59,499 bases of DNA from a virus (IMGVR_UViG_2874945390_000008), one strand, 5' to 3'. Counted from the first letter of the stretch, positions 35,137 through 51,128 are shown. Made by a program: numbers and translations. The notes: a model not told the origin generated them from the sequence alone.

Positions 35137-35211
<75 letters not shown>

Positions 35212-35214
35212 ATA

Positions 35215-35290
<76 letters not shown>

Positions 35291-35292
35291 GC

Positions 35293-35369
35293 TGGCCCAC
35301 CACCGAGGACTCGAACCTCGCACCGTCAACTTAGAAGGTTGATGCTCTATCCGGATGAGCTAGTGGTGG
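35293..35369 (-). tRNA. tRNA-Arg (anticodon UCU)
   Basis: rc folds with acceptor CCACCAC/GTGGTGG, anticodon loop CTTCTAA, T-arm CGAGGTTCGAGTCCTCG, CCA end. Confidence 0.75.
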
Positions 35370-35370
35370 T

Positions 35371-35447
35371 TGGTGGCCCTTGCTGGACTTGAACCAGCGA
35401 CCTGGCGATTATGAGTCGCTCGCTCTGACCAACTGAGCTAAAGGGCC
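35371..35447 (-). tRNA. tRNA-Ile2-like (anticodon CAU; tRNA-Met not excluded by anticodon alone)
   Basis: rc = GGCCCTTTAGCTCAGTTGGTCAGAGCGAGCGACTCATAATCGCCAGGTCGCTGGTTCAAGTCCAGCAAGGGCCACCA, close to ileX as I recall it. Confidence 0.8.
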
Positions 35448-35540
35448 GGAGACAGAATAATAACCATATGTCATCACATCTGCAAACTCATCTGACCACC
35501 AGCACGTTTAACGTCCTGTGCCGTTTTTCAGGTATAAAAA

Positions 35541-35566
35541 AACCCGCATAAAGCGGGCTCTTTCAA
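35541..35566 (-). terminator. Rho-independent terminator downstream of the 185-aa gene
   Basis: Minus strand gaaagagCCCGCtttatGCGGGttttttt. Confidence 0.55.
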
Positions 35567-35654
35567 ATGTCCATGTCTGCTATTCGCCTCGCAGTACAAC
35601 TTTGCGAAGCGTACCGGAACTGAAGCAGTTTATGGCTAAAATTGCAAGAACTTT

Positions 35655-36212
35655 TTAAAGCTGCATCAGCCTTTCCACCAGTTTATCTCTGCGAACAACA
35701 AACCAACCATTGGCTCTCGCCAGTTCCAGCCATGACTCAAGGGAAATAACAATATCATCATCCCGCAACTGAATTGTGGAAACAGTGACACCGCCTTGCT
35801 GATAACAGAGAACTCGCGTGTCGTAACTTTTCTGGCATGAAACTGGCGTTGACGGCTCCTTTTGACTGAAATAGCAGTCTTCCAGTTTTTCGAACACATC
35901 CCACGCCTGATCGGTTTCGAGCATTTTTGCGTGGCGGGCTGCGCCGCGTTCTGTCCAGAGAATGAGGGAGCGGGTTTTGGGAGAGATGGGATTTTGTGAG
36001 TAGTTTAAAGCTACCCGCAATTCTTTAAGGTCATTACCAACAACTTTGAAAAAGTGTTTCCCTTCAACGAAGCGTACTTTGTTCTCATGATGATTCTGGC
36101 GAATACGCACCGGCTCAGTGCCGTAAAGCTGCGCCAAAAGTTCGGTGGTAATAACAGGAATCTGGTTATAGGTAACAGGGGAAAGGTTTTTGACAGAAAT
36201 CTGAACAGTCAT
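35655..36212 (-). CDS. Phage antirepressor-like DNA-binding protein (ORF6N-type, copy X)
   Basis: MTVQISVKNLSPVTYNQIPVITTELLAQLYGTE...SLILWTERGAARHAKMLETDQAWDVFEKLEDCYF; paralogue at 40190..40735. Confidence 0.5.
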   Translation of the reverse strand: MTVQISVKNLSPVTYNQIPVITTELLAQLYGTEPVRIRQNHHENKVRFVEGKHFFKVVGNDLKELRVALNYSQNPISPKTRSLILWTERGAARHAKMLETDQAWDVFEKLEDCYFSQKEPSTPVSCQKSYDTRVLCYQQGGVTVSTIQLRDDDIVISLESWLELARANGWFVVRRDKLVERLMQL

Positions 36213-36470
36213 AACGACCTCGCGTTTCGATGGTTTTTAACTCACCACCTGCGACGCCAATCGCTGGGTGGTGAACTGTGCAGGGTTGGCGTAACCGGTC
36301 GAAACATCCGGCGAGTCTCTCAACTCCCCCACACAGCCCACCATAAATCGCGAATGTGACTGTGCTTAGCGCATAAAAAAACCGCCAGCGCGGTTATGCA
36401 CCGTTTTGAGGTAGCCTGAGTTTAACGGACACTCCTTCCTGAAATAGAATGGCATCAGAAGGAGCTAATA

Positions 36471-36773
36471 ATGAGCAGAAAAACCCAACGTTACTCTAAA
36501 GAGTTCAAAGCCGAAGCTGTCAGAACGGTTCTTGAAAATCAACTTTCGATCAGTGAAGGCGCTTCCCGATTATCCCTTCCTGAAGGCACTTTAGGACAAT
36601 GGGTTACCGCCGCCAGAAAAGGGCTCGGTACTCCTGGTTCCCGCACGGTGGCTGAACTGGAATCTGAAATTCTGCAACTGCGTAAGGCGTTAAATGAAGC
36701 TCGCCTTGAGCGAGATATATTAAAAAAAGCAACAGCGTATTTTGCACAGGAGTCGCTGAAAAATACGCGTTAG
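36471..36773 (+). CDS. IS600 OrfA
   Basis: MSRKTQRYSKEFKAEAVRTVLENQLSISEGASRLSLPEGT...; A7 slippery run at 36722..36728. Confidence 0.88.
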   Translation: MSRKTQRYSKEFKAEAVRTVLENQLSISEGASRLSLPEGTLGQWVTAARKGLGTPGSRTVAELESEILQLRKALNEARLERDILKKATAYFAQESLKNTR

Positions 36774-36808
36774 TCGAACAATGGCGACAACAATTCCCTG
36801 TTGAAGCG

Positions 36809-37627
36809 ATGTGTCAGGTATTTGGTGTATCCAGGAGCGGTTATTACAACTGGGTACAGCATGAACCCTCAGACAGAAAACAAAGTGATGAGCGGCTAAA
36901 ACTGGAGATTAAGGTGGCACATATCCGCACTCGCGAAACATATGGAACCCGGCGGCTCCAGACGGAGCTGGCAGAGAATGGCATCATCGTTGGTCGTGAC
37001 CGACTGGCACGTCTTCGTAAGGAGCTAAGGCTACGCTGTAAGCAGAAACGCAAGTTCAGAGCGACTACGAACCCGAACCACAATCTGCCAGTTGCGCCAA
37101 ATCTGCTGAACCAGACGTTCGCTCCTACAGCACCAAATCAGGTCTGGGTGGCGGACCTGACGTATGTTGCCACACAGGAGGGATGGTTGTACCTCGCTGG
37201 CATCAAAGATGTTTATACGTGCGAAATTGTCGGCTACGCCATGGGAGAGCGCATGACAAAAGAGCTGACAGGTAAAGCCCTGTTTATGGCGCTCAGGAGC
37301 CAGCGCCCACCTGCCGGGCTAATCCACCACTCTGATCGAGGTTCACAGTACTGCGCATACGATTACCGGGTCATACAGGAGCAGTTTGGTCTGAAAACAT
37401 CAATGTCGCGTAAAGGTAACTGTTACGACAACGCTCCGATGGAAAGCTTCTGGGGAACGCTGAAAAATGAGAGCCTGAGCCACTATCGTTTTAATAACCG
37501 GGATGAAGCCATCTCAGTAATACGGGAATACATTGAGATTTTCTACAATCGTCAGCGTCGTCACTCTCGTCTGGGGAATATCTCCCCGGCAGCCTTCAGG
37601 GAAAAATATCATCAGATGGCTGCTTAA
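36809..37627 (+). CDS. IS600 OrfB (made as OrfAB by -1 frameshift; track start is the first in-frame ATG)
   Basis: DDE transposase ...WVADLTYVATQEGWLYLAGIKDVYTCEIVGYAM...; -1 frame is open from the A-run. Confidence 0.85.
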   Translation: MCQVFGVSRSGYYNWVQHEPSDRKQSDERLKLEIKVAHIRTRETYGTRRLQTELAENGIIVGRDRLARLRKELRLRCKQKRKFRATTNPNHNLPVAPNLLNQTFAPTAPNQVWVADLTYVATQEGWLYLAGIKDVYTCEIVGYAMGERMTKELTGKALFMALRSQRPPAGLIHHSDRGSQYCAYDYRVIQEQFGLKTSMSRKGNCYDNAPMESFWGTLKNESLSHYRFNNRDEAISVIREYIEIFYNRQRRHSRLGNISPAAFREKYHQMAA

Positions 37628-37674
37628 AAAAAGAACAAATGGTAGTGTCCGCTATTGCCAGTACACCTCATTTC

Positions 37675-37735
37675 GATATCCGGGACGCCAATCCCGACGC
37701 CAGATTTTGCTGGCGCGTGAGGAATATAGCCCCGG
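37675..37735. repeat. ~60-bp conserved element, copy 1
   Basis: catccgggacgccaatcccgacgccagattttgctggcgcgtgaggaatatagccccgga also at 40940..41000; contains hairpin cgccag-attttg-ctggcg. Confidence 0.7.
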
Positions 37736-37748
37736 ATAACAGATTGAG

Positions 37749-38303
37749 TCAACAGACAGTTTTTAAATCCCCGGAAGAGAATGCATCACGCATCGGCAGA
37801 TAGAGCATAAACTCTGCCATTTTCAACCACGCATCTATGCGATTACGGCACGTGGCGTAACACCACTCAGGGTGTGAATCATTCAGCAATTCAGCCATTT
37901 TTCGCTTAGTCATCCCCCTCCCTTCATATCGTTGCCGGAGGATACAAATCAATCCTGGGTGTTCTGCCAGCACTTCACTAATCACCCGATCAATGCATAA
38001 CGCCTCTGCATCAGTACAATGCACCAGCCAGCTTTTTTGCTTGCCGTTGATCATATCCCGCAAAAAAGCCTCAAGTTCAGGTTTGTCCAGACCTGCTTTT
38101 TTCATCCTCCGGAGCGCCTCGTTAATTGCCGTTTTTGTCAGCTTTTTAGAGGCCAACAACTGGTTGAACATATTCCCCGTCTTACCGCCGCCAATATACG
38201 ACCAGCGCCCCCACATGCGCAGTTTTCCCTGAATCCAGACACTTTCCAGCGTGGTGAGACGAAGGTGTTCCCCGCTTTTGCCTGTATTTGTTGGGTAAAT
38301 CAT
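37749..38303 (-). CDS. Late-gene antiterminator Q-like protein (by synteny)
   Basis: Sits between ybcO-like and the tRNA/lysis region; start at ATG 38303 (MIYPTNTGKSG) overlapping the ybcO-like stop. Confidence 0.4.
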   Translation of the reverse strand: MIYPTNTGKSGEHLRLTTLESVWIQGKLRMWGRWSYIGGGKTGNMFNQLLASKKLTKTAINEALRRMKKAGLDKPELEAFLRDMINGKQKSWLVHCTDAEALCIDRVISEVLAEHPGLICILRQRYEGRGMTKRKMAELLNDSHPEWCYATCRNRIDAWLKMAEFMLYLPMRDAFSSGDLKTVC

Positions 38304-38590
38304 AAATAACCTTCCTTTCTCCAGATTTCTTGCGTGCGAAAAACACCTTCTGCATGCATCAGGCGTAATTCTTCTTTGGTGTAATCGCTTGTTTTTACCC
38401 GCCCGTCGATTAAATCGTGGCATGAGCTACAGGCAATCGCCGCCTGCATATCGTGTGGTTTTGTCGCTGTTCCGCACGTTCCCGCCAGTCGGTAATGCGC
38501 CAGCACAGACGTTTCCGGATCGTGATTGCAGTAGCCAGGAATTCTGACGGTGCACATCTGCCCCCGCGCCGCTTTACGTAAATCCACCAT
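38300..38590 (-). CDS. YbcO-like nin-region protein
   Basis: MVDLRKAARGQMCTVRIPGYCNHDPETSVLAHYR... Cys-rich 96-aa protein. Confidence 0.6.
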   Translation of the reverse strand: MVDLRKAARGQMCTVRIPGYCNHDPETSVLAHYRLAGTCGTATKPHDMQAAIACSSCHDLIDGRVKTSDYTKEELRLMHAEGVFRTQEIWRKEGYL

Positions 38591-39189
38591 TACGCAAACT
38601 CCAGTAGCTGCGCGGCCACATTTTCGACTTCCTCCGGAGAGGAGAATTTACGGAACAGGATCCAGTTCCACAGCACATTCAGTACAGATTTATAAACCTG
38701 CTGAAACTCGGTTTCGTCCATGTTCGCAAATGCGATAGATTTTGCCCTGCACCCACGACTACCATCAGGATAAATATGCTCGGTGTAAAATCCGGCCTGA
38801 ATGGTTACCCACTCGCGGAAAGCCTCAAACGACTTTAGCAATGCCGTATCACGGGTTCTGCGTGTCGCAACTGTATTCAGATATTGCTCTGCGGCTTCGC
38901 TCAGAGCTGGCGTATGTTCCCGGCCTACTGATTCACACAGGTAATCAACGAAACCGGACACCAGTTTTCGTTCGCGAGGCGTGATCGCCCCACCGACCGG
39001 AGTCCAGTAATCGAAACCCAGTTGCAGGAGTTTGAAAAAACGCTTGTGGAATGCGTAGTTACGCACACGCTTAAAGTCTGCGTGTATCCACTCACCTATT
39101 TTGATTTGATGCAGAAAATCGCAACTCTCCGGCGTCGCCGGGAGAAGTAATCCGGAAGAGGTTTGTTTGACCAGTTGTATATGTGCCAT
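38590..39189 (-). CDS. YbcN-like nin-region protein
   Basis: MAHIQLVKQTSSGLLLPATPESCDFLHQIKIGEW...; start at ATG 39189. Confidence 0.5.
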   Translation of the reverse strand: MAHIQLVKQTSSGLLLPATPESCDFLHQIKIGEWIHADFKRVRNYAFHKRFFKLLQLGFDYWTPVGGAITPRERKLVSGFVDYLCESVGREHTPALSEAAEQYLNTVATRRTRDTALLKSFEAFREWVTIQAGFYTEHIYPDGSRGCRAKSIAFANMDETEFQQVYKSVLNVLWNWILFRKFSSPEEVENVAAQLLEFA

Positions 39190-39227
39190 CGGCTTTCTCC
39201 GGTGGCACGGTGTTACACAGCAGGAGT

Positions 39228-39515
39228 TCAATCCTGCTCAAGATTGTAGATGAGTTTATTCTTCAGCAAAAGCAGAAAACCAGCCTTAAAACCAATCTCT
39301 TTCAAAACCCGTAATGATGTGACAAATTCGTCCTCACGCAAAATAAAACCGTCCGTCAGAAGTCCATTACAAAAATAAAATAACACAGCACCGCTCTTCC
39401 TTTGTTGAGATTGCAAACATCTAATGCGGCAATGGCTGACAATCGCTCCATTCTCAACGCGCACAGCATAGAGGCCATTTTCACTAAAAATTTCACGCAA
39501 TTCTTCGATTTTCAT
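39228..39515 (-). CDS. Hypothetical phage protein
   Basis: 95-aa ORF. Confidence 0.3.
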   Translation of the reverse strand: MKIEELREIFSENGLYAVRVENGAIVSHCRIRCLQSQQRKSGAVLFYFCNGLLTDGFILREDEFVTSLRVLKEIGFKAGFLLLLKNKLIYNLEQD

Positions 39516-39644
39516 CTTCAGAATCCTTCCAGATAAATAGCTCTCCCCTGTTCGGGGTCCATCCCTCTTCTCCCTGCGCGCTACTTAAGTGAGTCGATTC
39601 TATCTGCGAAGGTGCGCGAATCAAATTCACCGGAAATAAACAAC

Positions 39645-39695
39645 AAAAAACCCGCCGAAACGCTGAGAGATCACAGCGATGGGCGGGTTAAGTGC
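39645..39695 (-). terminator. Terminator at the 3' end of the hok transcript
   Basis: Minus strand aaCCCGCC...GGCGGGtttttt. Confidence 0.5.
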
Positions 39696-39764
39696 GGGTG
39701 CGTTGAGGATGCCTGACACATCAGAGGTGGGCGGGGATGGGATCAGCTCCCCGCCCGGTCACTC

Positions 39765-39920
39765 TTACTTCCTGGATTCGTAGTCTACGAAGACAGCGAC
39801 CTCCGTCTGGCCGGTTCGGATTCGTACCTCACAGAGGTCTTTCCTCGTTACCAGTGCCGTCACTATGACGGTTAAACAGATGACGATCAGGGCGACTAAC
39901 ATCGCCTTTTGCTGCTTCAT
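39765..39920 (-). CDS. hok: Hok/Gef-family type I toxin
   Basis: MKQQKAMLVALIVICLTVIVTALVTRKDLCEVRIRTGQTEVAVFVDYESRK; track ORF has a 19-codon in-frame upstream extension. Confidence 0.85.
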   Translation of the reverse strand: MKQQKAMLVALIVICLTVIVTALVTRKDLCEVRIRTGQTEVAVFVDYESRK

Positions 39921-40149
39921 AGCCTGCTTCTCCTTGCCTTCCGGCACGTAAGAGGCTAACCTACATGTGTCTAGCATGAAATTGGCCTCAGATTAATGTT
40001 AAGCGTCTTGCAGGACGCGTAATGTTAACTGGGGCTTCTCATCTGCCTTTTGGTGTTCATGCCTGAGACAGATAGCCTCAAGCACCCGCAGCAATTCTAC
40101 TTAACTTCCCTTTCACCGCAAATCATTTTATCCCCGGTGGTAATGTTCT

Positions 40150-40175
40150 CCCGATATGGGAATTCCCATATCGGG
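40150..40175. repeat. 26-bp perfect palindrome between the copy-Y gene and the hok leader
   Basis: cccgatatgggaattcccatatcggg. Confidence 0.8.
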
Positions 40176-40189
40176 GCTAATTTAACCAG

Positions 40190-40735
40190 TTAAAGCTCCA
40201 TTAATTTTCCGGCAAGTTCATCTCGCGGCATTACCAGCCATCCGCGCGATTTAAGCAACATCAGGGCTTCTTCAACCGTCACCAGCTGACCAGGCGCATA
40301 ACTTCGGATGAAGGCAGTTTTATCATCACGGATCGCCAGGTGAATATCGATGTTCATTTTCCCCGTAGCCCGATCTTTCTCGTACTGGTTGAAGTAGCAG
40401 TCTTCCAATTTTTCGAATACTTCCCACGCCTGATCGGTTTCGAGCATTTTAGCGTGACGTGCTGCTCCGCGTTCTGTCCAGAGAATGAGGGAGCGAACGT
40501 TACGGGCAATTTTCACAGACTCGCTTAAAGATAGTCTGTGCTTCATACCTCTAAGCTCATCGCCCACTAACTTATAAAAATGCTTACCTTCAATAAAACG
40601 TTCAGCGTTTCTGGCGTGATTTTGCTGAATGCGAATCGCTTCTGTGCCGTACAACTGCGCCAAAAGTTCAGTGGTAATAACAGGTATCTGGTTATGGGCG
40701 ATCGGGGAGAGAGTTTCAACAGAGATTTGAGTGGT
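40190..40735 (-). CDS. Phage antirepressor-like DNA-binding protein (ORF6N-type, copy Y)
   Basis: MTTQISVETLSPIAHNQIPVITTELLAQLYGTE...; paralogue of 35655..36212. Confidence 0.5.
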   Translation of the reverse strand, partial: TTQISVETLSPIAHNQIPVITTELLAQLYGTEAIRIQQNHARNAERFIEGKHFYKLVGDELRGMKHRLSLSESVKIARNVRSLILWTERGAARHAKMLETDQAWEVFEKLEDCYFNQYEKDRATGKMNIDIHLAIRDDKTAFIRSYAPGQLVTVEEALMLLKSRGWLVMPRDELAGKLMEL

Positions 40736-40889
40736 CATAACGATAACTCCGTACATTTGGAAATTATCGCCACCGACGACGCCAATCGAACTGGTGGCGA
40801 ACTGTGCAGGGTTGGCGTAACCGGGTACGGAAACCGGCGAGCCTTTCGGCTCCCCCACACAGCCCGCCATAAATCGCGAATGTGACTGT

Positions 40890-40915
40890 GCAAACGATAT
40901 GAAAAAAGACGCGGA
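40890..40915 (-). terminator. Hairpin plus T-run upstream of copy Y
   Basis: Minus strand AGACGCGtccGCGTCTtttttc. Confidence 0.4.
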
Positions 40916-40939
40916 CGCGTCTCATATCGCTCCGTAAAC

Positions 40940-41000
40940 ATCCGGGACGCCAATCCCGACGCCAGATTTTGCTGGCGCGTGAGGAATATAGCCCCGGATT
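40940..41000. repeat. ~60-bp conserved element, copy 2
   Basis: Same sequence as 37675..37735. Confidence 0.7.
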
Positions 41001-41065
41001 AACGTTGTCGTCAACAGCCACTACAGGCTAAACTAACAATATTCCCCAACAACGAAGGATTTAAC

Positions 41066-41353
41066 ATGGCTCAGGTCTATTTTGATACACTGAAGTTCGT
41101 CGAAACCTTGGAAGCCGCAGGAATGCCGGCAGCTCAGGCGCGCGCTATATCTGCCGCAGTGAAAGATTCTCACGAAGCCGCAGAAGTCGCCACAAAGCGC
41201 GACCTAAATGATGTCAGAACTGAACTAAAAAACGACATTGCAGCCCTTGATGCAAAAATAGACAAACTCAGCCTGCAACTGACCGTCAGATTTGGTGGCA
41301 TGCTCGTCGTTGCTGTTGGCGCACTGACAGCCATCATCAAATTACCTCTTTAA
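41066..41353 (+). CDS. Coiled-coil membrane-anchored protein (DUF1640-like)
   Basis: MAQVYFDTLKFVETLEAAGMPAAQARAISAAVKDSHEA... with C-terminal TM segment. Confidence 0.5.
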   Translation: MAQVYFDTLKFVETLEAAGMPAAQARAISAAVKDSHEAAEVATKRDLNDVRTELKNDIAALDAKIDKLSLQLTVRFGGMLVVAVGALTAIIKLPL

Positions 41354-42348: not shown

Positions 42349-43647
42349 CTGAGGGATCCCCACAAAATTACTGCTAATAAACCAGCACCATATTTCGGTA
42401 GGTTCTGGACAGATGGTTTAGAACTGTGCTCAGTACTGTTCGTCTTAAAATAAGTGGCGAGTGTCGAAGAACATTCTTCGCTAACGTCAGATATGAGATA
42501 ACCCGCCGGGATTTAATGCTGTTAGCCTGATATTTCAGGTGTAACCCTTTATTTTCAGCGTGATAACCGAGTAACCACATTACGATAGTGCTCAACGTTG
42601 CCAGCAGACTCAGAACCAGAATTCTTCCTGTTGAACGACTTTTGCTGGCCCGAAGACCAAATCCGAAGCGCCCGTTCTTTTCATCACGAAAGTTTTGCTC
42701 TATCTGCATTCGCCGACTGTATAACTTGATGATTTCTCGCGCTCTGAAGTCATTTGTACTGCTGAAGATCAACCAGGCTTCTTTTGCTGATTTGCTCTGT
42801 TCTTTGTCTGTTTTGTTTAAACCACTCTGACCTTTCGAACGTTTCTTTTTTCGCCCTTTTGCCGATTTCTTATAGGTGTAAAAATGCCCCCGGATGCTTT
42901 TTTCCTTTCTTTAACCAGCCTTCCAGCCCCCATATATTCCGGTGTTTTACATTCAGGGCTATCCGACACTTTTAACCATCTTTCAGGCGCGTTATCGAGG
43001 CAATACTGAACGTTATTTCTGATCCGACCAATAAAATCCCAGCCCAGAGAAGTAATATGGTGAAACCATGCGCTCTGAAATCCAGCATCCGTGACAATAA
43101 TAACCCTGGCATCGGGGGCAGGGATTGAGCAAGGGAATCAAGGAAATCATGTTGTATCAATGGATTATTTTGTTTTTCAGAAGGAACAACCTTACTCAAT
43201 AACGGAATGGAACGCCCGTCACACAGAAGGCTGGCACGAAGAACATGATGCTCCTGGGAGGGATAGCCACTCCAGTCTACGGCTATTACACATAAAGATA
43301 ACTGCCGTGTCAGCATTGAAGTGATATTCCTGAAAATCATTGGAATATCGCGATGGAGCGCCTCATTACCCATGAGGCGATCAATACGTTTGCTCTTATT
43401 CTTAACTTGTGCATTACCCGGCAAAAAACGTCCGATACTGGTCAGCGTCAGAGATGCTCCGTTGATTAACGCCACTGTGGCATCCATCAGGGCATTTTGT
43501 CGGTACTGATGAAATGGTGCTAAGGCATCCCGGAAGAAATTCTGACATACTTTATGAACAGGCATAGCAGTGATCTCATTGAATTGTTGGCACAAATCAG
43601 TAGATCACATAATGCTATGTCTGTCTCGTTTTCTGGGGATTCCTCAG
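42349..43647 (-). mobile_element. IS10-like element (IS4 family), copy A, defective
   Basis: Ends CTGAGGGATCCCCACAAAA / CTGAGGAATCCCCAGAAAA; transposase frame broken by C6 to C5 (43114..43118) and A7 to A6 (42898..42903) relative to copy B. Confidence 0.8.
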
Positions 43648-43970
43648 GGCAGGGGGGCGGCGAATTGTCTCTGGTACCTGGCAAGGACTGGAACAATCAG
43701 CAGAATATCTATCACCGTTGGTTGAAAGGTGAAACGAAAGCGCAAAGGGAAAAAATTCAGAAACTGATCCCTGCGGTTCTGGCAATTCTTCCGCGTGAGC
43801 TGCGTCACCGACTCTGTATCTTCGATACCCTGGAACGCCGTGCATTACTGGCGGCGCAGGAAGCGTTGAGTACGGCAATTGATGCGCATGATGATGCTGT
43901 CCAGGCCGTTTACCGGAAAGCACATTTCAGCGGTGGTGGGTCGCCCGGCGATTCTGTCGTAGTGCATTGA
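43648..43970 (+). pseudogene. ydaT-like gene, 3' fragment
   Basis: Joins in frame with 47813..47921(-) across one copy of ggcaggggg to give MKIRHEHIESVLLALAAEKGQAWVANAITEEYLRQGGGELSLVPGKDW... Confidence 0.65.
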
Positions 43971-44047
43971 TTGAAATTAATCGTGCCGGATTGTTTTGTT
44001 CGGTATCAGTTAAATGTAACGCTGCGAGCGTTACAAGGTGAAAACAA

Positions 44048-44825
44048 ATGGCTTCAAACTGGATAAAGCTCGAGGTTATTACGCCGGATAAGCCGGAAAT
44101 ATTCAGGCTTGCTGAGATTCTGAATATTGATCCAGATGCCGCATTAGGGAAGGTTATTCGCTTCTGGGCATGGGCGGATCAACAAATGATAGACGGTAAT
44201 GCAGATTGTAACGCTCGCGGCGTTACAAAAAGTGCAATAGATCGCATCACTTTTATGTCTGGTTTTGCTGATGCGTTAATTCAGGTTGGATGGCTGGTCG
44301 AAAATGACGGTGGGCTTTCTCTACCTAACTTTGAACGTCATAACGGAAAAAGCTCTAAAAAAACGGGCGGTTACAAACGAGCGAGTAACAAAAATACGCG
44401 AACTGAAACGAAAAGGTAACGCGGCCAGCGTTACACAAACGGATCAAAAAGCGTTACCAGAGGAAGATCTAAATACTGATCTCCCCCTAAATCCCCCTCG
44501 CCAAAAACGAGCGTCTAAAAAATTCGAGCCGGAGGCTATTGAGCTGCCCGATTGGTTGCCGGAAACACTCTGGCATGAGTGGGTCCGGTTCAGACAGGCA
44601 TTGCGAAAACCGATTCGAACGGAGCAGGGCGCTAACGGGGCGATACGGGAACTGGAAAAATTCCGTCAGCAGGGTTTTACACCTGAGCAGGTGATTCGAC
44701 ACAGCATCGCCAATGAATACCAGGGCCTGTTCGCGCCGAAAGGTGTTCGGCCTGAGACGTTGCTCCGACAGGTTAACACCGTCTCGTTGCCGGACAGTGC
44801 GATCCCGCCAGGCTTCAGGGGGTAA
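44048..44825 (+). pseudogene. ydaU-like replication protein, frame broken at an A7 run
   Basis: ORFs 44048..44419 and 44286..44825 overlap in adjacent frames around ctaaaaaaacgg (about 44352). Confidence 0.45.
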
Positions 44826-44831
44826 CGGACC

Positions 44832-45578
44832 ATGAAAAATATTGCGACAGGCGGCGTTCTGGAACGCATCCGCCGACTGACCCCGCCACATGTAATCGCC
44901 CCATTCAGAACGGTAGCGGAGTGGTGCGAGTGGCAACTTGCTGAAGGCCAGAAACGTAGCGAGGAGATCAACCGCCTGAATCGCCAGTTGCGGGTGGAAA
45001 ATATTCTGAATCGCTCAGGCATCCAGCCGTTGCACCGTAAATGCTCGTTTGCGAATTACCAGGTGCAGAACGACGGCCAGCGATACGCGTTAAGCCAGGC
45101 GAAATCCATCGCCGATGAACTGATGACCGGGTGTACAAATTTTGCGTTCAGCGGAAAACCTGGTACCGGGAAGAATCACTTAGCGGCAGCTATCGGGAAT
45201 CGCCTGCTGAAAGACGGTCAGACAGTGAATGTGGTTACCGTGGCTGATGTTATGAGCGCCCTGCACGCCAGCTATGACGACGGGCAGTCAGGCGAAAAAT
45301 TTTTGCGGGAGCTGTGCGAAGTGGATCTGCTGGTTCTTGATGAAATTGGCATTCAGCGCGAGACGAAAAACGAGCAGGTGGTGCTGCACCAGATTGTTGA
45401 TCGCCGGACAGCGTCGATGCGCAGCGTGGGGATGCTGACAAACCTGAACTATGAGGTGATGAAAACATTGCTCGGCGAGCGGATTATGGATCGCATGACC
45501 ATGAACGGCGGGCGCTGGGTGAATTTTAACTGGGAGAGCTGGCGTCCGAATGTTAGCCATTCGAGGGTTGTTAAGTAG
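44832..45578 (+). CDS. DnaC-like helicase loader (Rac YdaV-like)
   Basis: Walker A GKPGTGKNHLAAAIG, Walker B LLVLDEIG; MKNIATGGVLERIRRL... Confidence 0.85.
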   Translation: MKNIATGGVLERIRRLTPPHVIAPFRTVAEWCEWQLAEGQKRSEEINRLNRQLRVENILNRSGIQPLHRKCSFANYQVQNDGQRYALSQAKSIADELMTGCTNFAFSGKPGTGKNHLAAAIGNRLLKDGQTVNVVTVADVMSALHASYDDGQSGEKFLRELCEVDLLVLDEIGIQRETKNEQVVLHQIVDRRTASMRSVGMLTNLNYEVMKTLLGERIMDRMTMNGGRWVNFNWESWRPNVSHSRVVK

Positions 45579-45592
45579 TTTCAGGAGGATTT

Positions 45593-46015
45593 ATGGCGAA
45601 ACCTTTTACTCCCGAACAGCGGGAAGAACTGAAGACGCGAATTGTGGAACTCGTGCATCAGGACGGTCGGGTCACGATTCGGCAGTTGTCAGATGAAACA
45701 GGTATCAGTCGTGCGTCTGTCGGTCGCTTATGCATGGAACTGGTCGCAAGTGGTGATGTATATAATTCTGGCTACGGCTTATTCCCGTCTGAACAGGCTC
45801 GCAAGGACTGGCAAAGCGCCCGCAAAAAACTCTCGAGAGTAAAGGTGAGGAAACCATCTGTGGTTGATCTGGATCTTATCTGGTCATTACCTGACGGAGA
45901 AATACGTCGTTACGACAGGCGTCATAATATAATTTGTACTGAGTGTCGTAAAAGCGAAGTTATGCAGCGTGTATTGGCTTTCTATCAGGGTAATTTTCAG
46001 GAGGTGGTACTGTGA
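45593..46015 (+). CDS. Putative HTH DNA-binding protein
   Basis: ...RVTIRQLSDETGISRASVGRLCMELVASGDV... HTH-like segment; 140 aa. Confidence 0.4.
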   Translation: MAKPFTPEQREELKTRIVELVHQDGRVTIRQLSDETGISRASVGRLCMELVASGDVYNSGYGLFPSEQARKDWQSARKKLSRVKVRKPSVVDLDLIWSLPDGEIRRYDRRHNIICTECRKSEVMQRVLAFYQGNFQEVVL

Positions 46016-46072
46016 GTGAAATTAGTTATCAGGCACTAATTGCCGCAGGCATTCGCATCAAAGGAGAGTGAC

Positions 46073-46429
46073 GTGGAAATAAAACCAGAAGATGAGTTAA
46101 GTAATATTGTTTTATTTCCGGTAAAAGAGGATGACCCTCGTAATCAGGTTAATTTTCTTTATGATCCATCGGAAAGACCATATTGCCATCACGCCTCTGT
46201 ACGGGTTGACGAAAAAGAGCGTCAGGTCCGCTGTAAAATCTGCGGTGCGGTTGTGGAGCCGTTTGACTGGATGCTCTCTGTGGCAAAAAGAGAAACCAGA
46301 CTGGCAGATGATGTAAGGCTATTGCGCCAGGAGGAACAGGAAAGGCGGAGAAATATAGAAAAGCTGATACAGATTGAGCGTAACGCGAAAGCGCGGATAC
46401 GCAGGGCGACAAAATCCAGAACTGAATAA
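46073..46429 (+). CDS. Zinc-ribbon / coiled-coil protein
   Basis: GTG start after AAGGAG; CHH...CKICG motif then charged coiled-coil. Confidence 0.35.
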   Translation: MEIKPEDELSNIVLFPVKEDDPRNQVNFLYDPSERPYCHHASVRVDEKERQVRCKICGAVVEPFDWMLSVAKRETRLADDVRLLRQEEQERRRNIEKLIQIERNAKARIRRATKSRTE

Positions 46430-46511
46430 TTAAATTTAGCACTGTTAAAAATTTAATCCTTAACCGGAGGGATTCCTGCACCCTCAAATCATCAGGAGGC
46501 CGCCCGAAAGG

Positions 46512-47812
46512 CTGAGGAATCCCCAGAAAACGAGACAGACATAGCATTATGTGATCTACTGATTTGTGCCAACAATTCAATGAGATCACTGCTATGCCTG
46601 TTCATAAAGTATGTCAGAATTTCTTCCGGGATGCCTTAGCACCATTTCATCAGTACCGACAAAATGCCCTGATGGATGCCACAGTGGCGTTAATCAACGG
46701 AGCATCTCTGACGCTGACCAGTATCGGACGTTTTTTGCCGGGTAATGCACAAGTTAAGAATAAGAGCAAACGTATTGATCGCCTCATGGGTAATGAGGCG
46801 CTCCATCGCGATATTCCAATGATTTTCAGGAATATCACTTCAATGCTGACACGGCAGTTATCTTTATGTGTAATAGCCGTAGACTGGAGTGGCTATCCCT
46901 CCCAGGAGCATCATGTTCTTCGTGCCAGCCTTCTGTGTGACGGGCGTTCCATTCCGTTATTGAGTAAGGTTGTTCCTTCTGAAAAACAAAATAATCCATT
47001 GATACAACATGATTTCCTTGATTCCCTTGCTCAATCCCTGCCCCCCGATGCCAGGGTTATTATTGTCACGGATGCTGGATTTCAGAGCGCATGGTTTCAC
47101 CATATTACTTCTCTGGGCTGGGATTTTATTGGTCGGATCAGAAATAACGTTCAGTATTGCCTCGATAACGCGCCTGAAAGATGGTTAAAAGTGTCGGATA
47201 GCCCTGAATGTAAAACACCGGAATATATGGGGGCTGGAAGGCTGGTTAAAGAAAGGAAAAAAAGCATCCGGGGGCATTTTTACACCTATAAGAAATCGGC
47301 AAAAGGGCGAAAAAAGAAACGTTCGAAAGGTCAGAGTGGTTTAAACAAAACAGACAAAGAACAGAGCAAATCAGCAAAAGAAGCCTGGTTGATCTTCAGC
47401 AGTACAAATGACTTCAGAGCGCGAGAAATCATCAAGTTATACAGTCGGCGAATGCAGATAGAGCAAAACTTTCGTGATGAAAAGAACGGGCGCTTCGGAT
47501 TTGGTCTTCGGGCCAGCAAAAGTCGTTCAACAGGAAGAATTCTGGTTCTGAGTCTGCTGGCAACGTTGAGCACTATCGTAATGTGGTTACTCGGTTATCA
47601 CGCTGAAAATAAAGGGTTACACCTGAAATATCAGGCTAACAGCATTAAATCCCGGCGGGTTATCTCATATCTGACGTTAGCGAAGAATGTTCTTCGACAC
47701 TCGCCACTTATTTTAAGACGAACAGTACTGAGCACAGTTCTAAACCATCTGTCCAGAACCTACCGAAATATGGTGCTGGTTTATTAGCAGTAATTTTGTG
47801 GGGATCCCTCAG
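46512..47812 (+). mobile_element. IS10-like element (IS4 family), copy B, intact
   Basis: 1301 bp; same ends as copy A; single 407-aa transposase ORF. Confidence 0.85.
46564..47787 (+). CDS. IS4-family (IS10-group) transposase
   Basis: MCQQFNEITAMPVHKVCQNFFRDALAPFHQYRQ...VTDAGFQSAW...YSRRMQIEQNFRDEK... Confidence 0.8.
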   Translation: MCQQFNEITAMPVHKVCQNFFRDALAPFHQYRQNALMDATVALINGASLTLTSIGRFLPGNAQVKNKSKRIDRLMGNEALHRDIPMIFRNITSMLTRQLSLCVIAVDWSGYPSQEHHVLRASLLCDGRSIPLLSKVVPSEKQNNPLIQHDFLDSLAQSLPPDARVIIVTDAGFQSAWFHHITSLGWDFIGRIRNNVQYCLDNAPERWLKVSDSPECKTPEYMGAGRLVKERKKSIRGHFYTYKKSAKGRKKKRSKGQSGLNKTDKEQSKSAKEAWLIFSSTNDFRAREIIKLYSRRMQIEQNFRDEKNGRFGFGLRASKSRSTGRILVLSLLATLSTIVMWLLGYHAENKGLHLKYQANSIKSRRVISYLTLAKNVLRHSPLILRRTVLSTVLNHLSRTYRNMVLVY

Positions 47813-47921: not shown

Positions 47922-48128
47922 GAATCACCTTCCTAGGTCGTTTTGCCTTACGATATTCGTCATAAACTTTGGGGTCGTACTGAAGTTCCCCGCCAGATGC
48001 CTCTTGCAGGCGCATCGCGCGACCTTCAGGAACCAGTTCCCCCCATGCAGGCTTGCCAGCCTAACTCCTGCGGCATTGGCAAGCTTTGTTTTGCTGCCAA
48101 AAAACGCTATAGCATCAATTTTCAACAT
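47905..48128 (-). pseudogene. dicC: Cro/DicC-like regulator with a 1-bp frameshift in a G-run
   Basis: MLKIDAIAFFGSKTKLANAAGVRLASLHGG then out of frame; adding one G restores ...ELVPEGRAMRLQEASGGELQYDPKVYDEYRK. Confidence 0.55.
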
Positions 48129-48204: not shown

Positions 48205-48612
48205 ATGAAAAACGAAACCTTCGGTGCTCGCCTCTTACATAGGCGTAAAAAATTAAAACTGTCTCAGGCCGCATTAGGTAAGCTGGTCAAAGTGGCTCAC
48301 GTAACAATTTCTCAATGGGAAAGAGATGAAACACAGCCGGCGGGGAAAAGATTATTCGCACTGAGCCAAGCGCTTCAGTGCTCACCGGCTTGGCTTCTTT
48401 TTGGGGATGAAGATAAACAACCAGGCGAACCGATCCCGGATAATCAGCCAGCCATTCTGACAGAAGATCAAAAAGAGTTACTTCAACTGTTCGACGCACT
48501 GCCTGAGTCAGAGCAAAAGGCCCTGTTGTCAGAGATGCGTGCTCGAGTTGAAAATTTCAACAAACTTTTTGAAGAACTACTCAAAGCTCGCAAAAGAAGC
48601 GCAAACAAATAA
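48205..48612 (+). CDS. dicA: DicA-like HTH repressor
   Basis: MKNETFGARLLHRRKKLKLSQAALGKLVKVAHVTISQWERDETQPAGKRLFALSQALQCSPAWLLFGDEDKQP...; divergent from the cro-like gene. Confidence 0.8.
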   Translation: MKNETFGARLLHRRKKLKLSQAALGKLVKVAHVTISQWERDETQPAGKRLFALSQALQCSPAWLLFGDEDKQPGEPIPDNQPAILTEDQKELLQLFDALPESEQKALLSEMRARVENFNKLFEELLKARKRSANK

Positions 48613-49363: not shown

Positions 49364-50516
49364 AATAGCTGCGCTTAATACCGCTACACTTTTGCCAGTC
49401 CATGTTTGCCTCCGGGGAATGGGCTGACGGTTTCCATAAAATGGCGAACTTTTTTCAACAGTTGCCACATTGAGCGGCACTGATGATTACGCGTTATTGT
49501 GTCGTGAAGTGCCTGCCATAGCCGTTCAACATGATTCACCCATGGCGAGTAAACCGGCTGATAAATGACCCTGAACTTCGGGTTCTCCTTCAGCCAGCTC
49601 TGTGTTTCCCGGCTTTTGTGGATAATGTAGTTGTCCACGATCAGCGTGATGGTTTTCGCCCGACGGTATGTCGCTTTAAGCCGCTTCAGCAGGCTGATGA
49701 ACAGCGCCGAACTTTTGCTGTTGCCGCCCACATAGCTGACTTTACCTGTCCCGCTGTGCAGCGCTCCGGCCAGATAATATTTTTCATTCTGTCCCGGCGT
49801 GACCACCCGTTTTTGCTGTCCGCGCAGTTGCCAGTCCGCACCGATTTTGGGATGAAGATGGATATCCACTTCATCTTCATAAAAGACCGGATGCTCTGCG
49901 CTGCATTCGTCCAGTGCTTTATGGATTGCTGCCATCTTTTCATCTTTATGCGGGTCACGGATACGCAGAGTTGGCGCAGCCCTTCGCCACACAATCCCCG
50001 CAGACGGCAACCAGCGGCGAACGGTTCCGGCATTTAACTGGCAACCGGTTATCTCATTGATTTTTATTGCCAGCAGTTCTGTACTCCAGCGTGAACGCTG
50101 GTAGCCAAAGTCGCCGGGAGAATGTTTTACCAGCTCACGTAACAGTGTGCAGATATGCTCAAACGGCCAGCGACGGGCACGCCCGGCAGGTAATGATTTC
50201 AGTCCCTCAACACCCGACTGCGTGAACCAGTTAATCCAGCGTCCAACAGAGGAACGGGCGCAGCAGAGCGTTCTGGCAACGTCGCTGACACGGTCGCCCC
50301 GGTGCAGCATCAGCATGGCAGTCAGTCTGCGGGCATAATTTTTATCGTGTGTTTTATGGATGGCTTTCTGCATCAGGCGTCGTTCGTCACGGGAAATTGG
50401 TGCTATGATCGGCATTGCTCAGTCCGGTTGGTGATTTGTTTTGATTTGGCGATTGATCAGATCGCACAATCCGGGCTAAGTTCCCTCAAAGTGATCTACT
50501 ATTCCGCGCAGCTATT
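49364..50516 (-). mobile_element. IS630 (1153 bp)
   Basis: Terminal inverted repeats aatagctgcgc / gcgcagctatt; TA duplication in a CTAG context (49362..49363 and 50517..50518). Confidence 0.85.
49384..50415 (-). CDS. IS630-family transposase
   Basis: 343-aa ORF MPIIAPISRDERRLMQKAIHKTHDKNYARRLTAMLMLHRGDRVSDVAR... Confidence 0.85.
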   Translation of the reverse strand: MPIIAPISRDERRLMQKAIHKTHDKNYARRLTAMLMLHRGDRVSDVARTLCCARSSVGRWINWFTQSGVEGLKSLPAGRARRWPFEHICTLLRELVKHSPGDFGYQRSRWSTELLAIKINEITGCQLNAGTVRRWLPSAGIVWRRAAPTLRIRDPHKDEKMAAIHKALDECSAEHPVFYEDEVDIHLHPKIGADWQLRGQQKRVVTPGQNEKYYLAGALHSGTGKVSYVGGNSKSSALFISLLKRLKATYRRAKTITLIVDNYIIHKSRETQSWLKENPKFRVIYQPVYSPWVNHVERLWQALHDTITRNHQCRSMWQLLKKVRHFMETVSPFPGGKHGLAKV

Positions 50517-51105: not shown

Positions 51106-51128
51106 TAACCGCGCTCAGGCGGTTTTTT
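51106..51128 (+). terminator. Hairpin plus T7 terminator upstream of the Rha-like gene
   Basis: aaccgcgctcaggcggttttttta. Confidence 0.5.

Follow-up and report, generated by a model that had tools for sequence, protein, structure and literature searches.

The window analysed here is a 59,499-nt stretch of viral DNA (IMGVR_UViG_2874945390_000008). It contains two ORF6N antirepressor-like genes, described in the initial annotation as encoding ~180-aa proteins with conserved N-termini, and this description holds: the products have 185 and 181 aa, match Pfam ORF6N with E-values of ~2e-20 and the PHROG 'anti-repressor' group, and are identical at 96 of 186 positions overall and at 79 of 115 in the N-terminal part. 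We refer to the two genes with their upstream regions as cassettes X and Y (Table 1). The X protein is 52% identical over its full length to AnrP/STM2616 of the Salmonella prophage Gifsy-1. Cassette X lies directly downstream of a Q-like antiterminator gene, while cassette Y lies in the nin region and not after Q. The X gene is followed by a terminator-like hairpin, absent from the terminator scan's list, that lies upstream of four tRNA genes. X and Y were correctly recognized at first, but the window holds a third cassette, Z, on the opposite strand. The terminator between the conserved 60-bp element and the leader, and the breakage of a functional RNA by IS600, had likewise been missed.

Table 1 Positions of the features of cassettes X, Y and Z in the window
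Cassette	Feature	Position	Strand	Evidence
X	Q-like antiterminator gene (DUF1133), directly upstream; context only	37749..38303	-	Pfam DUF1133 3.9e-108, weak Phage_antitermQ; PHROG 'anti-termination protein Q-like'
X	Promoter-like site, TTGACT-18-TATATT	37723..37752	-	10/12 consensus matches
X	IsrK-like short RNA, 5' fragment	37671..37716	-	Rfam and motif positions
X	Hairpin CGCCAG-CAAAAT-CTGGCG	37698..37715	-	Motif position
X	a1 TTGGCGT, in hairpin loop	37685..37691	-	Motif position
X	b1, truncated, TCGAAA	37671..37676	-	Motif position
X	IS600 (IS3 family), 1264 bp	36407..37670	+	
X	IS600 orfA	36471..36773		
X	IS600 orfB	36809..37627		
X	IsrK-like RNA, 3' fragment: final base of b1 and intrinsic terminator	36375..36403	-	
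X	Terminator AACCGC-GCTG-GCGGTT, then T7	36395..36380	-	Terminator scan
X	C4 antisense RNA	36264..36348	-	RF01695, 68.7 bits, E 2.7e-11; predicted fold is the family structure
X	C4 b' loop GTTTCGA	36299..36305	-	
X	C4 a' ACGCCAA, single-stranded	36286..36292	-	
X	Target region	36218..36260	-	a2 TTGGCGT 36254..36260; b2 TCGAAAC 36224..36230; Shine-Dalgarno GAGG 36218..36221
X	ORF6N antirepressor-like gene, 185 aa	35655..36212	-	Pfam ORF6N 2e-20; PHROG 2379 'anti-repressor' 4.7e-92
X	Terminator-like hairpin after gene, CCCGC-TTTAT-GCGGG, then T7	35536..35557	-	Read from sequence
Y	Promoter-like site, TTGACG-18-TATATT	40985..41014	-	10/12 consensus matches
Y	IsrK-like short RNA, intact	40902..40978	-	Rfam isrK, 75.1 bits (threshold 50)
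Y	Hairpin	40960..40977	-	
Y	a1 TTGGCGT	40947..40953	-	
Y	b1 TACGGAG	40930..40936	-	
Y	Terminator, then T run	40923..40906	-	Terminator scan
Y	C4 antisense RNA	40790..40874	-	RF01695, 77.6 bits, E 1.7e-13; fold predicted
Y	C4 b' loop TCCGTAC	40825..40831	-	
Y	C4 a' ACGCCAA	40812..40818	-	
Y	Target region	40747..40785	-	a2 TTGGCGT 40779..40785; b2 GTACGGAG 40747..40754
Y	ORF6N antirepressor-like gene, 181 aa	40190..40735	-	Pfam ORF6N 2.2e-20; PHROG anti-repressor
Z	Whole cassette, third in window	51018..51844	+	Rfam isrK 64.8 bits, C4 79.0 bits
Z	Promoter-like site	51018..51046	+	Promoter scan
Z	IsrK-like RNA	51053..51129	+	
Z	C4	51154..51241	+	
Z	a2; b2 with Shine-Dalgarno	51246..51252; 51276..51287	+	
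Z	Rha-family gene	51296..51844	+	Pfam Phage_pRha 1.5e-32

Upstream of their genes, X and Y share a ~60-bp element, identical at 58 of 58 positions and lying at the previously reported coordinates (37675..37735 and 40940..41000), and a conserved leader (36230..36360 and 40750..40880). The leader is 82% identical, near the 85% estimated by eye, although it spans 131 bp rather than ~180 bp. Pairwise alignment gave 86% identity for the C4 core, compared with 66% for the coding DNA overall and 72% over its first 300 nt. The non-coding parts are thus better conserved than the genes, so the proposal of a conserved leader withstands this comparison. The leader is a C4 antisense RNA (RF01695), and the 60-bp element is c4-a1b1, the upstream target motif of C4 (RF03163; 52.9 bits at 37729..37677 in X, 52.2 bits at 40991..40939 in Y), overlapping the IsrK sRNA family (RF01394). 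C4, c4-a1b1 and isrK are covered by matches above the curated Rfam thresholds (45, 46.7 and 50 bits) in X, Y and the third locus, and their E-values of 1e-8 to 1e-14 show that they are not due to chance.

Each cassette follows the same order: a sigma-70-like promoter, an IsrK-like RNA (hairpin, a1, b1 and terminator), C4, a2, b2 at the Shine-Dalgarno sequence, and the ORF6N gene (in Z, the Rha-family gene). Scans of the X/Y region and of Z placed promoters and terminators where the C4 model needs them. The X promoter-like site is one of the two best in 35400..41200, and in both X and Y the Rfam isrK match begins 7 nt downstream of the promoter-like site. The promoter core TATCCGGGGCTATATTCC is conserved in X, Y, Gifsy-1, Stx phage P27 and two E. 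coli prophages. Direct sequence reading demonstrates that a2 and b2 of X are complementary to a' and b' of its own C4. The Y b2 site includes the Shine-Dalgarno GGAG, whereas the X b2 site stops 2 nt short of the Shine-Dalgarno sequence without covering it, which counts against the C4 explanation. In Z, the a and b sites are both unlike those of X and Y, and both match Z's own C4.

The annotated immI record of phage P1, from which we took the names a and b, lists the same order: a sigma-70 promoter, a hairpin, a1, b1, a terminator-like hairpin, c4, a2 and b2. There too a2 lies a few nucleotides after c4, b2 runs into the Shine-Dalgarno sequence of the first gene, a' is a single-stranded stretch 3' of hairpin 2, whose loop forms b', and P1 c4 falls in the same Rfam family as the cassette C4s. 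The cassettes differ from P1 in lying in a lambdoid prophage rather than a plasmid prophage, and in having an ORF6N (or Rha) protein of ~180 aa, rather than Ant1/Ant2, as the regulated product. The absence of an icd-like gene between C4 and the antirepressor gene also sets them apart from P1 and counts against the C4 explanation; b2 therefore lies at the antirepressor-type gene's own ribosome-binding site. Stx phages (vB_EcoS_P27, PA28) carry the same promoter, isrK/c4-a1b1 and C4 before an ORF6N-type Ant gene, between ninE and roi as in cassette Y, although their Ant proteins have an extra P22_AR_C domain and their b specificity differs (CCTTTTTC/GAAAAAGG). The CI RNA of satellite phage P4 belongs to the same Rfam clan as C4 (CL00128) and, as proposed for the C4 RNAs here, is processed from the leader of its own operon and pairs with upstream and downstream target copies (seqA/seqC). 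IsrK has been described as a structural homolog of P4 SeqA RNA, and P4 CI acts through premature transcription termination of replication genes (PMC4825925). The best Rfam matches of the cassettes are to C4 and not to the P4 family.

The suggestion that the leader acts through RNA structure is supported by folding and covariation. The predicted fold matches that of the family, and two C4 stem pairs differ between X and Y in a compensatory manner. Compensatory changes affect 13 of 27 pairs across 37 loop types, and the 37 sequences include a single broken cell; these counts are not independent events, since the loci are interrelated and the pattern used to gather them fixes the hairpin-2 stem. 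Among 38 loop types from other phages, the C4 loop formed a mean Watson-Crick run of 7.1 nt with its cognate b1 and 8.6 nt with its cognate b2, compared with 4.0 and 4.4 nt for non-cognate sites, and matches of at least 6 nt to b2 were found in 97% of cognate but 11% of non-cognate pairs. Most of these b2 sites extend into GGAG or GAGG. Cognate and non-cognate pairs were separated by the loop-restricted analysis only, and not by whole-sequence duplex energies.

Together, our results suggest that X and Y are very probably self-contained P1 immI-type immunity cassettes with the antirepressor under RNA control. The explanation is an already known one, the P1 immI-type C4/antirepressor switch, of which these are ordinary copies; by analogy, a small antisense C4 RNA would block translation of the antirepressor in both modules. 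A constitutive-looking sigma-70 promoter would start a transcript whose first ~77 nt form the IsrK-family short RNA, with a hairpin, a1 displayed in a hairpin loop, b1 and an intrinsic terminator. Read-through transcripts would include the ~80-nt C4 RNA, in which a long closing stem surrounds two hairpins and which, on the P1 precedent, would be excised, followed by a2, b2 on or beside the Shine-Dalgarno sequence, and the ORF6N gene. Free C4 would pair through b' with b2 and through a' with a2, hiding the ribosome-binding site so that the putative antirepressor stays untranslated and, as in P1, perhaps permitting early transcription stop. The short upstream RNA, bearing the same two sites, may act as a competitor for C4 or bind it in cis.

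The experimentally studied relative is the antQ-isrK-orf45(STnc1160)-anrP locus of Gifsy-1, which has isrK, c4-a1b1 and C4 matches in the same order and an a site (UUGGCGU) identical to that of X, although its b1 (UCACCG) is unlike those found here, and an Rfam search gave no isrJ match after the X or Y gene. The isrK promoter drives anrP transcription, an ~80-nt RNA (STnc1160) is processed from the read-through transcript, and the compensatory mutant pairs G28A/C162U and G31A/C159U act as base pairs (Hershko-Shalev et al. 2016, PMC4825925); in our numbering, G28 and G31 fall in a1. When short IsrK is supplied in trans, anrP translation rises more than 100-fold and the prophage is induced (PMC4825925). 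The authors attribute this to a change in the folding of the long transcript and to translation of orf45, a small ORF overlapping the C4 region; a trans-acting C4 repressor has no part in their account, which counts against the C4 explanation, and constitutive expression of the orf45/C4 region made IsrK toxicity stronger, not weaker (PMC4825925).

The cassettes might accordingly work by activation only, the C4 region being mainly a translated leader ORF in a self-inhibited mRNA that an IsrK-like RNA opens in trans, with the antirepressor made by translational coupling and no free C4 repressor. SPA-tagged orf45, start- and stop-codon mutants and native gels argue for this in Gifsy-1 (PMC4825925). 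In 28 of 37 loop types, the frame from the AUG at the C4 5' end reaches the downstream start or continues beyond it without a stop (in frame with the gene start in 16 of these), and it runs for at least 30 codons in 92% of 78 loci, compared with 67% and 56% for the other frames. It is fused in frame to the gene in Y and Z; in Y, the upstream AUG at 40870 would give a possible 226-aa form. However, the frame stops 27 nt before the gene in X, whereas in Gifsy-1 the stop of orf45 and the start of anrP overlap (AUGA). Usually open in the cassettes, the frame is closed after 14 codons in P1, where mature c4 begins at the G of the AUG and processing therefore removes the start codon. Nor does this reading explain the processing of the ~80-nt RNA in Gifsy-1, or why b2 at the antirepressor's own Shine-Dalgarno sequence tracks the C4 loop in 38 types. 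We thus consider it somewhat unlikely that leader translation replaces a C4 repressor, and the two models can coexist.

Cassette X differs from Gifsy-1 in its interruption by IS600. The insertion had been placed correctly between the leader and the 60-bp element, but it interrupts the short upstream RNA inside one C4 target site: b1 holds the element, and the promoter, hairpin and a1 are split from the terminator, C4 and gene. The copy shares 99.7% identity with elements annotated 'IS3-like element IS600' and encodes HTH_Tnp_1 and rve domains (Pfam); a 3-bp TTT duplication borders it on both sides (36404..36406 and 37671..37673). The X isrK match (52.4 bits) runs into the IS600 end and is therefore chimeric. 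The two fragments of the RNA are contiguous in uninterrupted E. coli copies, and 2 E. coli genomes carry the empty-site junction with 100% identity and 124 with at least 95%. In X as it stands, the promoter, hairpin and a1 lead into IS600 in antisense, and the terminator, C4, a2/b2 and ORF6N gene lie 1.26 kb off with no promoter-like site of their own. Because the promoter is cut off from C4 and the gene, cassette X is probably silent or misregulated, while cassettes Y and Z look intact. Expression of X by read-through or from an outward IS promoter, with the loss of b1 and the terminator altering regulation rather than silencing the cassette, seems unlikely. C4, a2, b2 and the ORF6N reading frame are all intact, the lost terminator could raise read-through, and IS3-family ends can carry partial promoters. 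However, transcription would have to run through 1264 nt of IS600 in antisense, giving untranslated RNA in which Rho-dependent termination is likely, and the promoter scan found no minus-strand promoter-like site facing out of IS600 toward C4.

The X promoter could also be a phage late promoter (PR'-like). The short RNA would then correspond to lambda 6S RNA or StxS, and with Q transcription would pass its terminator and reach the antirepressor, tRNA and lysis genes. The stop codon of the Q-like gene and the -35 hexamer overlap, a terminator lies ~80 nt downstream, and the ORF6N, tRNA, holin, endolysin and Rz genes that follow are on the same strand; position and gene order are the same in Gifsy-1 (Q, c4-a1b1/isrK, C4, ORF6N gene, tRNA gene, lysis genes) and in E. 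coli FDAARGOS_944. Yet nin-region cassettes that lack an upstream Q (Y, P27 and a second FDAARGOS_944 prophage) have this promoter core and leader as well, and so do cassettes that follow Q genes of unrelated families (DUF1133 here, the phage 82 type in Gifsy-1), a distribution not expected of a Q-specific binding element. No pause or Q-binding element was identified, and we regard this reading as improbable. That the conserved DNA is an operator array for a DicA-like prophage repressor or another protein, as initially suggested, is very improbable and found no support: the P1 c4 promoter does carry a C1 operator and ATCCGGGGC, conserved between -35 and -10 in all subgroup cassettes, could bind a protein, but no C1-type operator was identified in the cassettes and no repeated operator-like half-sites were noticed in their alignments, the covariance-model matches lie far above threshold, and conservation is of the RNA type, with compensatory stems and three separate sites that co-change as antisense/target pairs.

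The prophage repressor (48205..48612) has a helix-turn-helix domain only and lacks an S24 peptidase domain, which fits induction via an antirepressor. Against the C4 explanation, the prophage is riddled with IS elements and may no longer be transcribed. X and Y did not arise by simple local duplication but are mosaic parts drawn from the pool of lambdoid phages: the Y leader is nearly identical to a post-Q cassette of E. coli FDAARGOS_944, and a nin-region cassette in another prophage of that strain matches the X empty-site junction at 100% identity. The shared regulation once proposed for the two modules extends to the a', a1 and a2 sites and the nearly identical promoters, but not to the b site at the ribosome-binding site, which matches its own C4 loop only, b1 and b2 differing correspondingly in each cassette. 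Citron and Schuster reportedly concluded in 1990 that the heteroimmunity of P1 and P7 rests on changed pairing sites that give different specificities. With the same a pair and different b pairs, each C4 should therefore fully recognise only its own message, and X and Y look like switches of different specificity.

The two ORF6N genes of the prophage belong to cassettes of a known system, in which a C4 antisense RNA controls an antirepressor-type gene, as at immI of phage P1. Cassettes X and Y, named for the two gene modules, are the lambdoid form of this cassette, which has been studied as isrK-anrP in Gifsy-1. The whole window was scanned with Rfam at curated thresholds (45 bits for C4, RF01695; 46.7 bits for c4-a1b1, RF03163; 50 bits for isrK, RF01394), and the matches fall in X, in Y and in a third cassette, Z (51018..51844, plus strand), which carries a Rha-type gene. 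Each cassette consists of a promoter-like site, a short IsrK-like RNA with two sites (a1 and b1) and a terminator, then C4, the sites a2 and b2, the latter at the Shine-Dalgarno sequence, and the gene. Following the naming of the P1 record, the C4 segments complementary to the a and b sites are called a′ and b′.

Coordinates of the cassette features in the window
Feature	Position	Strand	Remark
ORF6N gene, X	35655..36212	-	
C4 antisense RNA (RF01695), X	36348..36264	-	68.7 bits, full model length
Frame from the C4 AUG, X	36344..36232	-	stops 27 nt before the gene
Terminator-like hairpin and T run, X	36395..36380	-	between the 60-bp element and C4
IS600 in X	36407..37670		1264 bp; TTT at 36404..36406 and 37671..37673
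isrK (RF01394), X	37716..37627	-	52.4 bits, weaker; overlaps c4-a1b1 match, runs into IS600
c4-a1b1 (RF03163), X	37729..37677	-	52.9 bits
Promoter-like site, X	37752..37723	-	TTGACT-18-TATATT
ORF6N gene, Y	40190..40735	-	
C4 antisense RNA (RF01695), Y	40874..40790	-	77.6 bits, full model length
Frame from the C4 AUG, Y	40870..40190	-	fused in frame to the gene; 226 aa
Terminator-like hairpin and T run, Y	40923..40906	-	between the 60-bp element and C4
isrK (RF01394), Y	40978..40902	-	75.1 bits; overlaps c4-a1b1 match
c4-a1b1 (RF03163), Y	40991..40939	-	52.2 bits
Promoter-like site, Y	41014..40985	-	TTGACG-18-TATATT
Frame from the C4 AUG, Z	51002..51844	+	in-frame fusion with the gene, 280 aa when counted from an earlier ATG
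isrK (RF01394), Z	51053..51129	+	64.8 bits
C4 antisense RNA (RF01695), Z	51154..51241	+	79.0 bits, full model length
Rha-family gene, Z	51296..51844	+	preceded by isrK and C4 matches

The promoter-like sites of X and Y are the two best in 35400..41200, and in both cases the Rfam isrK start follows 7 nt after the end of the site. By the Rfam matches and the site scan, promoter and terminator delimit an IsrK-family RNA of about 77 nt in Y and Z. Cassette Z has the same promoter and terminator parts as X and Y; its short-RNA terminator is nearly identical to that of X. The isrK match of X is chimeric with the end of an IS600 element, so that an intact IsrK element is absent there. At every locus examined (X, Y, Z, Gifsy-1, E. 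coli and Stx phage P27), the isrK and c4-a1b1 models overlap on the same element. Only c4-a1b1 has been placed in the C4 clan by Rfam; RF01394 and RF03163 appear to describe one RNA.

The region belongs to a lambdoid prophage with many IS elements, read here along the minus strand. Its gene order is a DUF1640-like gene (plus strand), cassette Y, hok/sok, DUF1367, YbcO, a DUF1133 Q-like gene, cassette X, four tRNA genes, holin, endolysin and Rz. The ORF6N proteins of X (185 aa) and Y (181 aa) match Pfam with E about 2e-20 each, their best PHROG matches are 'anti-repressor' families, and the X protein is 52% identical over its full length to AnrP of Gifsy-1; judged by these similarities, both are probably of antirepressor type. 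The initial annotation had described X and Y as similar modules sharing a conserved leader and a 60-bp element, and pairwise alignment bears this out, with the non-coding parts more conserved than the genes. The 60-bp element is identical at 58/58 positions (100%) and the leader as originally delimited at 82%, compared with 66% for the coding DNA (72% in its first 300 nt). Identity is 92% for promoter plus element, 86% for the C4 core and 68% from the C4 end to the ATG, and the proteins agree at 96/186 positions overall and 79/115 in the N-terminal part. A hok/sok-type toxin-antisense locus lies between Y and X (39765..40087, minus strand; Rfam sok match 40087..39915), with a Hok/Gef-like peptide inside the ORF 39765..39977; this neighbour is also present in an E. 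coli relative. The four tRNA genes (35140..35447, minus strand), between the X antirepressor gene and the lysis genes, are annotated as Ile, Arg, Thr and Gly in the E. coli relative, and a promoter-like site (35486..35457, minus strand) lies just upstream of them.

We compared the cassettes with the annotated record of phage P1. There, the C1 operator and the c4 promoters are followed by a hairpin, a1 (TTGACAG), b1 (GTTAGTGC), a terminator-like hairpin, the c4 RNA, a2 at 3 nt after c4, b2 (GTTAGTGA, continuing into the GAGG of icd), icd and ant1/ant2. Within P1 c4, b′ (CACTAAC) is the loop of the second hairpin and a′ (CTGTCAA) is the single strand after it, and this arrangement is exactly matched in X, Y and Z. 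In P1, the c4 RNA of roughly 77 nt is processed from the operon transcript by RNase P and then acts in trans, and ant expression requires translation of icd, located between c4 and ant. Unlike in P1, where icd is targeted, b2 in X, Y and Z abuts the Shine-Dalgarno sequence of the ORF6N or Rha gene itself, and the stretch from b2 to the ORF6N or Rha start holds no ORF in any of the three cassettes.

Minimum-free-energy folds of C4 from X, Y and Z consist of a long closing stem around two hairpins. C4-like loci were collected from viral contigs with a pattern that left the loop and a′ free, and E. coli, Stx-phage and window copies were added. A consensus built from 37 loop types folds into the C4 structure, with compensatory changes in 13 of the 27 pairs and one broken cell; the hairpin-2 stem is uninformative on covariation, since it was fixed in the search pattern and is invariant by construction. 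Between X and Y, one closing-stem pair and one hairpin 1 pair each change from U-A to C-G. Of the two functions that had been suggested for the conserved leader, RNA structure proved right by folding and covariation; repressor binding found no support.

Not all pairing sites are shared between the cassettes. X and Y have the same single-stranded a′ (ACGCCAA) and the same a1 and a2 (TTGGCGT). In X, the b′ loop is GTTTCGA, b1 is TCGAAAC, split by IS600 before its last C, and b2 is TCGAAAC, 2 nt before GAGG. In Y, the loop TCCGTAC is complementary to GTACGGA(G) at b2 (GTACGGAG, containing GGAG), and b1 is TACGGAG. In Z, the a and b sites are both unlike those of X and Y and match its own C4: a′ is the single-stranded GTAGCAA, a1 and a2 are TTGCTAC, the b′ loop is CCGTGATGA, b1 is TCATTCACGG and b2 is TCATCGCGGAGG. 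The earlier suggestion that X and Y are under shared regulation therefore stands for the promoter and the a site only; elsewhere it fails, because the b sites differ.

Among the collected loci, 96 have exact a1 and a2 flanking C4, and these carry 38 different loops. Pairing was measured as the longest ungapped Watson-Crick run between the loop and either the 35 nt after a1 or the 60 nt after a2. Averaged over the 38 types, the run in the b1 region is 7.1 nt with the loop of the same locus and 4.0 nt with foreign loops; for the b2 region the corresponding values are 8.6 and 4.4 nt. Runs of at least 6 nt are found in 79% (b1) and 97% (b2) of cognate combinations and in 5% and 11% of non-cognate ones, in a sample of mutually related loci whose co-changes are thus not independent events. 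In the sampled loci, b2 mostly continues straight into GGAG or GAGG. Three separate sites co-changing across dozens of types is what an antisense/target relationship would predict. RNAduplex opens up the C4 stem, and its whole-sequence energies for every combination of C4 and target region therefore failed to tell cognate pairs from non-cognate ones. Duplexes of short segments that included internal loops also gave noisy values, and both measures were replaced by the loop-restricted Watson-Crick runs.

A studied relative is the Gifsy-1 cassette, where the order is Q, c4-a1b1/isrK, C4, the ORF6N gene (AnrP, STM2616), isrJ, a tRNA gene and the lysis genes. The Gifsy-1 Q protein (AntQ) is unrelated to the DUF1133 Q-like protein of the window, with no detectable similarity, yet the same cassette follows. 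The window gene in the Q position (37749..38303, minus strand) has a borderline Phage_antitermQ match besides DUF1133 (26.6 bits vs a cutoff of 26), and its stop codon overlaps the -35 hexamer of the X promoter.

In Gifsy-1, the isrK promoter drives anrP transcription, the long transcript stays untranslated, and its processing yields STnc1160, about 80 nt in length (PMC4825925). Supplying short IsrK in trans increases translation of anrP by a factor of more than 100, AnrP upregulates antQ and triggers prophage induction, and the mutant pairs G28A/C162U and G31A/C159U act as base pairs (PMC4825925). In our own numbering, G28 and G31 of IsrK lie inside UUGGCGU, that is, in a1, and their partners C162 and C159 would lie in the a′ stretch of C4. 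The authors of that study describe the C4 region as orf45, translated within a refolding mRNA, and name the P4 CI RNA, not P1 c4, as its analogue (PMC4825925). Since isrK and c4-a1b1 appear to be the same element, the Gifsy-1 IsrK experiments can be re-read through the P1 c4 mechanism. The antisense description and the orf45-refolding description are not exclusive, and both can hold.

The frame that starts at the AUG of the C4 5′ end corresponds to Gifsy-1 orf45, whose stop overlaps the antirepressor start. In the window cassettes it spans all of C4. Among the window cassettes and loci L001-L123, this frame has no stop codon before the downstream start in 28 of 37 loop types, 16 of them in frame, and it is open for at least 30 codons in 92% of 78 loci (other frames, 67% and 56%). 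In P1, it closes after 14 codons, and the c4 RNA is annotated as 77 nt from the G of AUG|G, a mature 5′ end that removes the AUG.

The IS600 element in X is 99.7% identical to annotated IS600 and has its length (about 1264 bp), its TGAGGT inverted-repeat ends, a 3-bp duplication, and orfA/orfB with HTH and rve domains (Pfam). With the element and one TTT copy removed, X reads ...GGATATCGAAACGGTGCATAACCGCGCTGGCGGTTTTTTT..., and this empty-site reconstruction places the insertion within b1 of X. An 88-nt query across the empty junction finds fully identical sequence (100%) in 2 complete E. coli genomes and sequence of at least 95% identity in 124; in one genome with the empty junction, the sequence precedes an Ant gene in the nin region. 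An uninterrupted E. coli allele lies near position 3,570,035 of NZ_CP065613. In X, IS600 leaves the promoter, hairpin and a1 on one side and the terminator, C4-X, a2, b2 and the gene on the other, and the cassette transcript from the X promoter now enters IS600 in antisense. The promoter scan found no promoter-like site facing out of IS600 toward C4-X, and expression of X is probably lost or disturbed. Searched exactly against a set with a single genome for each species, the IS600/b1 junction gave no match. As a naturally arisen, clean knockout of the upstream RNA, the insertion could be used as a comparison allele. Two more IS600 copies (655..1904, plus strand; 55567..56816, minus strand), each of 1250 bp and with 2 differing positions, have a common 14-bp deletion at the A-rich frameshift region that turns orfA and orfB into one 380-aa ORF; a partial IS600 end lies at 1..47.

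By sequence comparison, the cassettes are exchangeable modules rather than products of local duplication. In E. coli FDAARGOS_944, the cassette after DUF1133 has the upstream flank of X but the b specificity and leader of Y, and a second prophage of this strain has the empty-site sequence of the X short RNA in a cassette of its nin region. In Stx phages, the nin region holds yet another specificity, CCTTTTTC/GAAAAAGG. Of 5426 complete genomes, 1581 match the reconstructed X cassette, and many E. coli prophages have near-identical copies of it. After alignment of promoters from different contexts, a late promoter of the PR′/qut type with a short leader RNA ranks low as a reading of the X promoter: X does have a Q-type gene directly upstream (DUF1133, unrelated to AntQ), but Y and Z do not, the same promoter core and leader start occur in cassettes without an upstream Q, and the core with the first ~50 transcribed nt is conserved behind two unrelated Q families. 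The core, TATCCGGGGCTATATTCC, is common to the X, Y, FDAARGOS_944 and Stx-phage contexts, which speaks for a promoter that is part of the cassette and against a late promoter specific to Q. An origin of X and Y by simple duplication, tandem or segmental, was rejected, since each leader is closer to those of other prophages than to its partner.

The prophage repressor (48205..48612, plus strand; 135 aa) has an HTH domain only, with no S24 peptidase domain, which fits a prophage that relies on antirepressors for induction. A small Cro-like gene (47925..48128, minus strand) is divergent from it, and an IS630-like element (49384..50415) lies between the immunity region and cassette Z. An IS4-family element is present in two inverted copies, 42374..43595 (minus strand, disrupted) and 46564..47787 (plus strand). 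They bracket a segment, ~43600..46560, with replication-type genes on the plus strand; the other early-right and late genes are on the minus strand, and the segment looks like an IS-mediated inversion. Further curated RNA matches are the RalA antitoxin RNA (57114..57335), opposite a RalR-like ORF and adjoining xis/int; SraC/RyeA with SdsR/RyeB (58893..59037), at the prophage edge; and CssrB (1918..2100), a chromosomal sRNA of Shigella. A Shigella host is suggested by this match together with IS600 and plasmid hits to Shigella boydii.

For this window the finding itself matters little, as it is a textbook phage regulatory cassette recognized at curated thresholds. It is tempting to speculate, tentatively and with the odds somewhat against it, that the IsrK-like RNA acts as a mimic of the target and sequesters C4, giving a three-part switch of mimic, repressor and target in which co-resident cassettes are partly coupled. 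If so, the P1 c4 and Gifsy-1 IsrK work, now described in different terms, would be unified, and the family would have dozens of mutually orthogonal b specificities, with most members keeping one common a site. Cassettes X, Y and Z would then be partly coupled switches, with cross-talk between X and Y through the shared a site only, and the IS600 insertion would have deprived X of its mimic and separated its repressor and gene from their promoter. More broadly, the b′/b1/b2 triplets offer a wide natural range of RNA specificities that appear orthogonal; a small sample already holds at least 38 of them. They are possible parts for synthetic RNA switches, and they could help to forecast immunity and cross-induction among prophages in the same host, Stx phages included.
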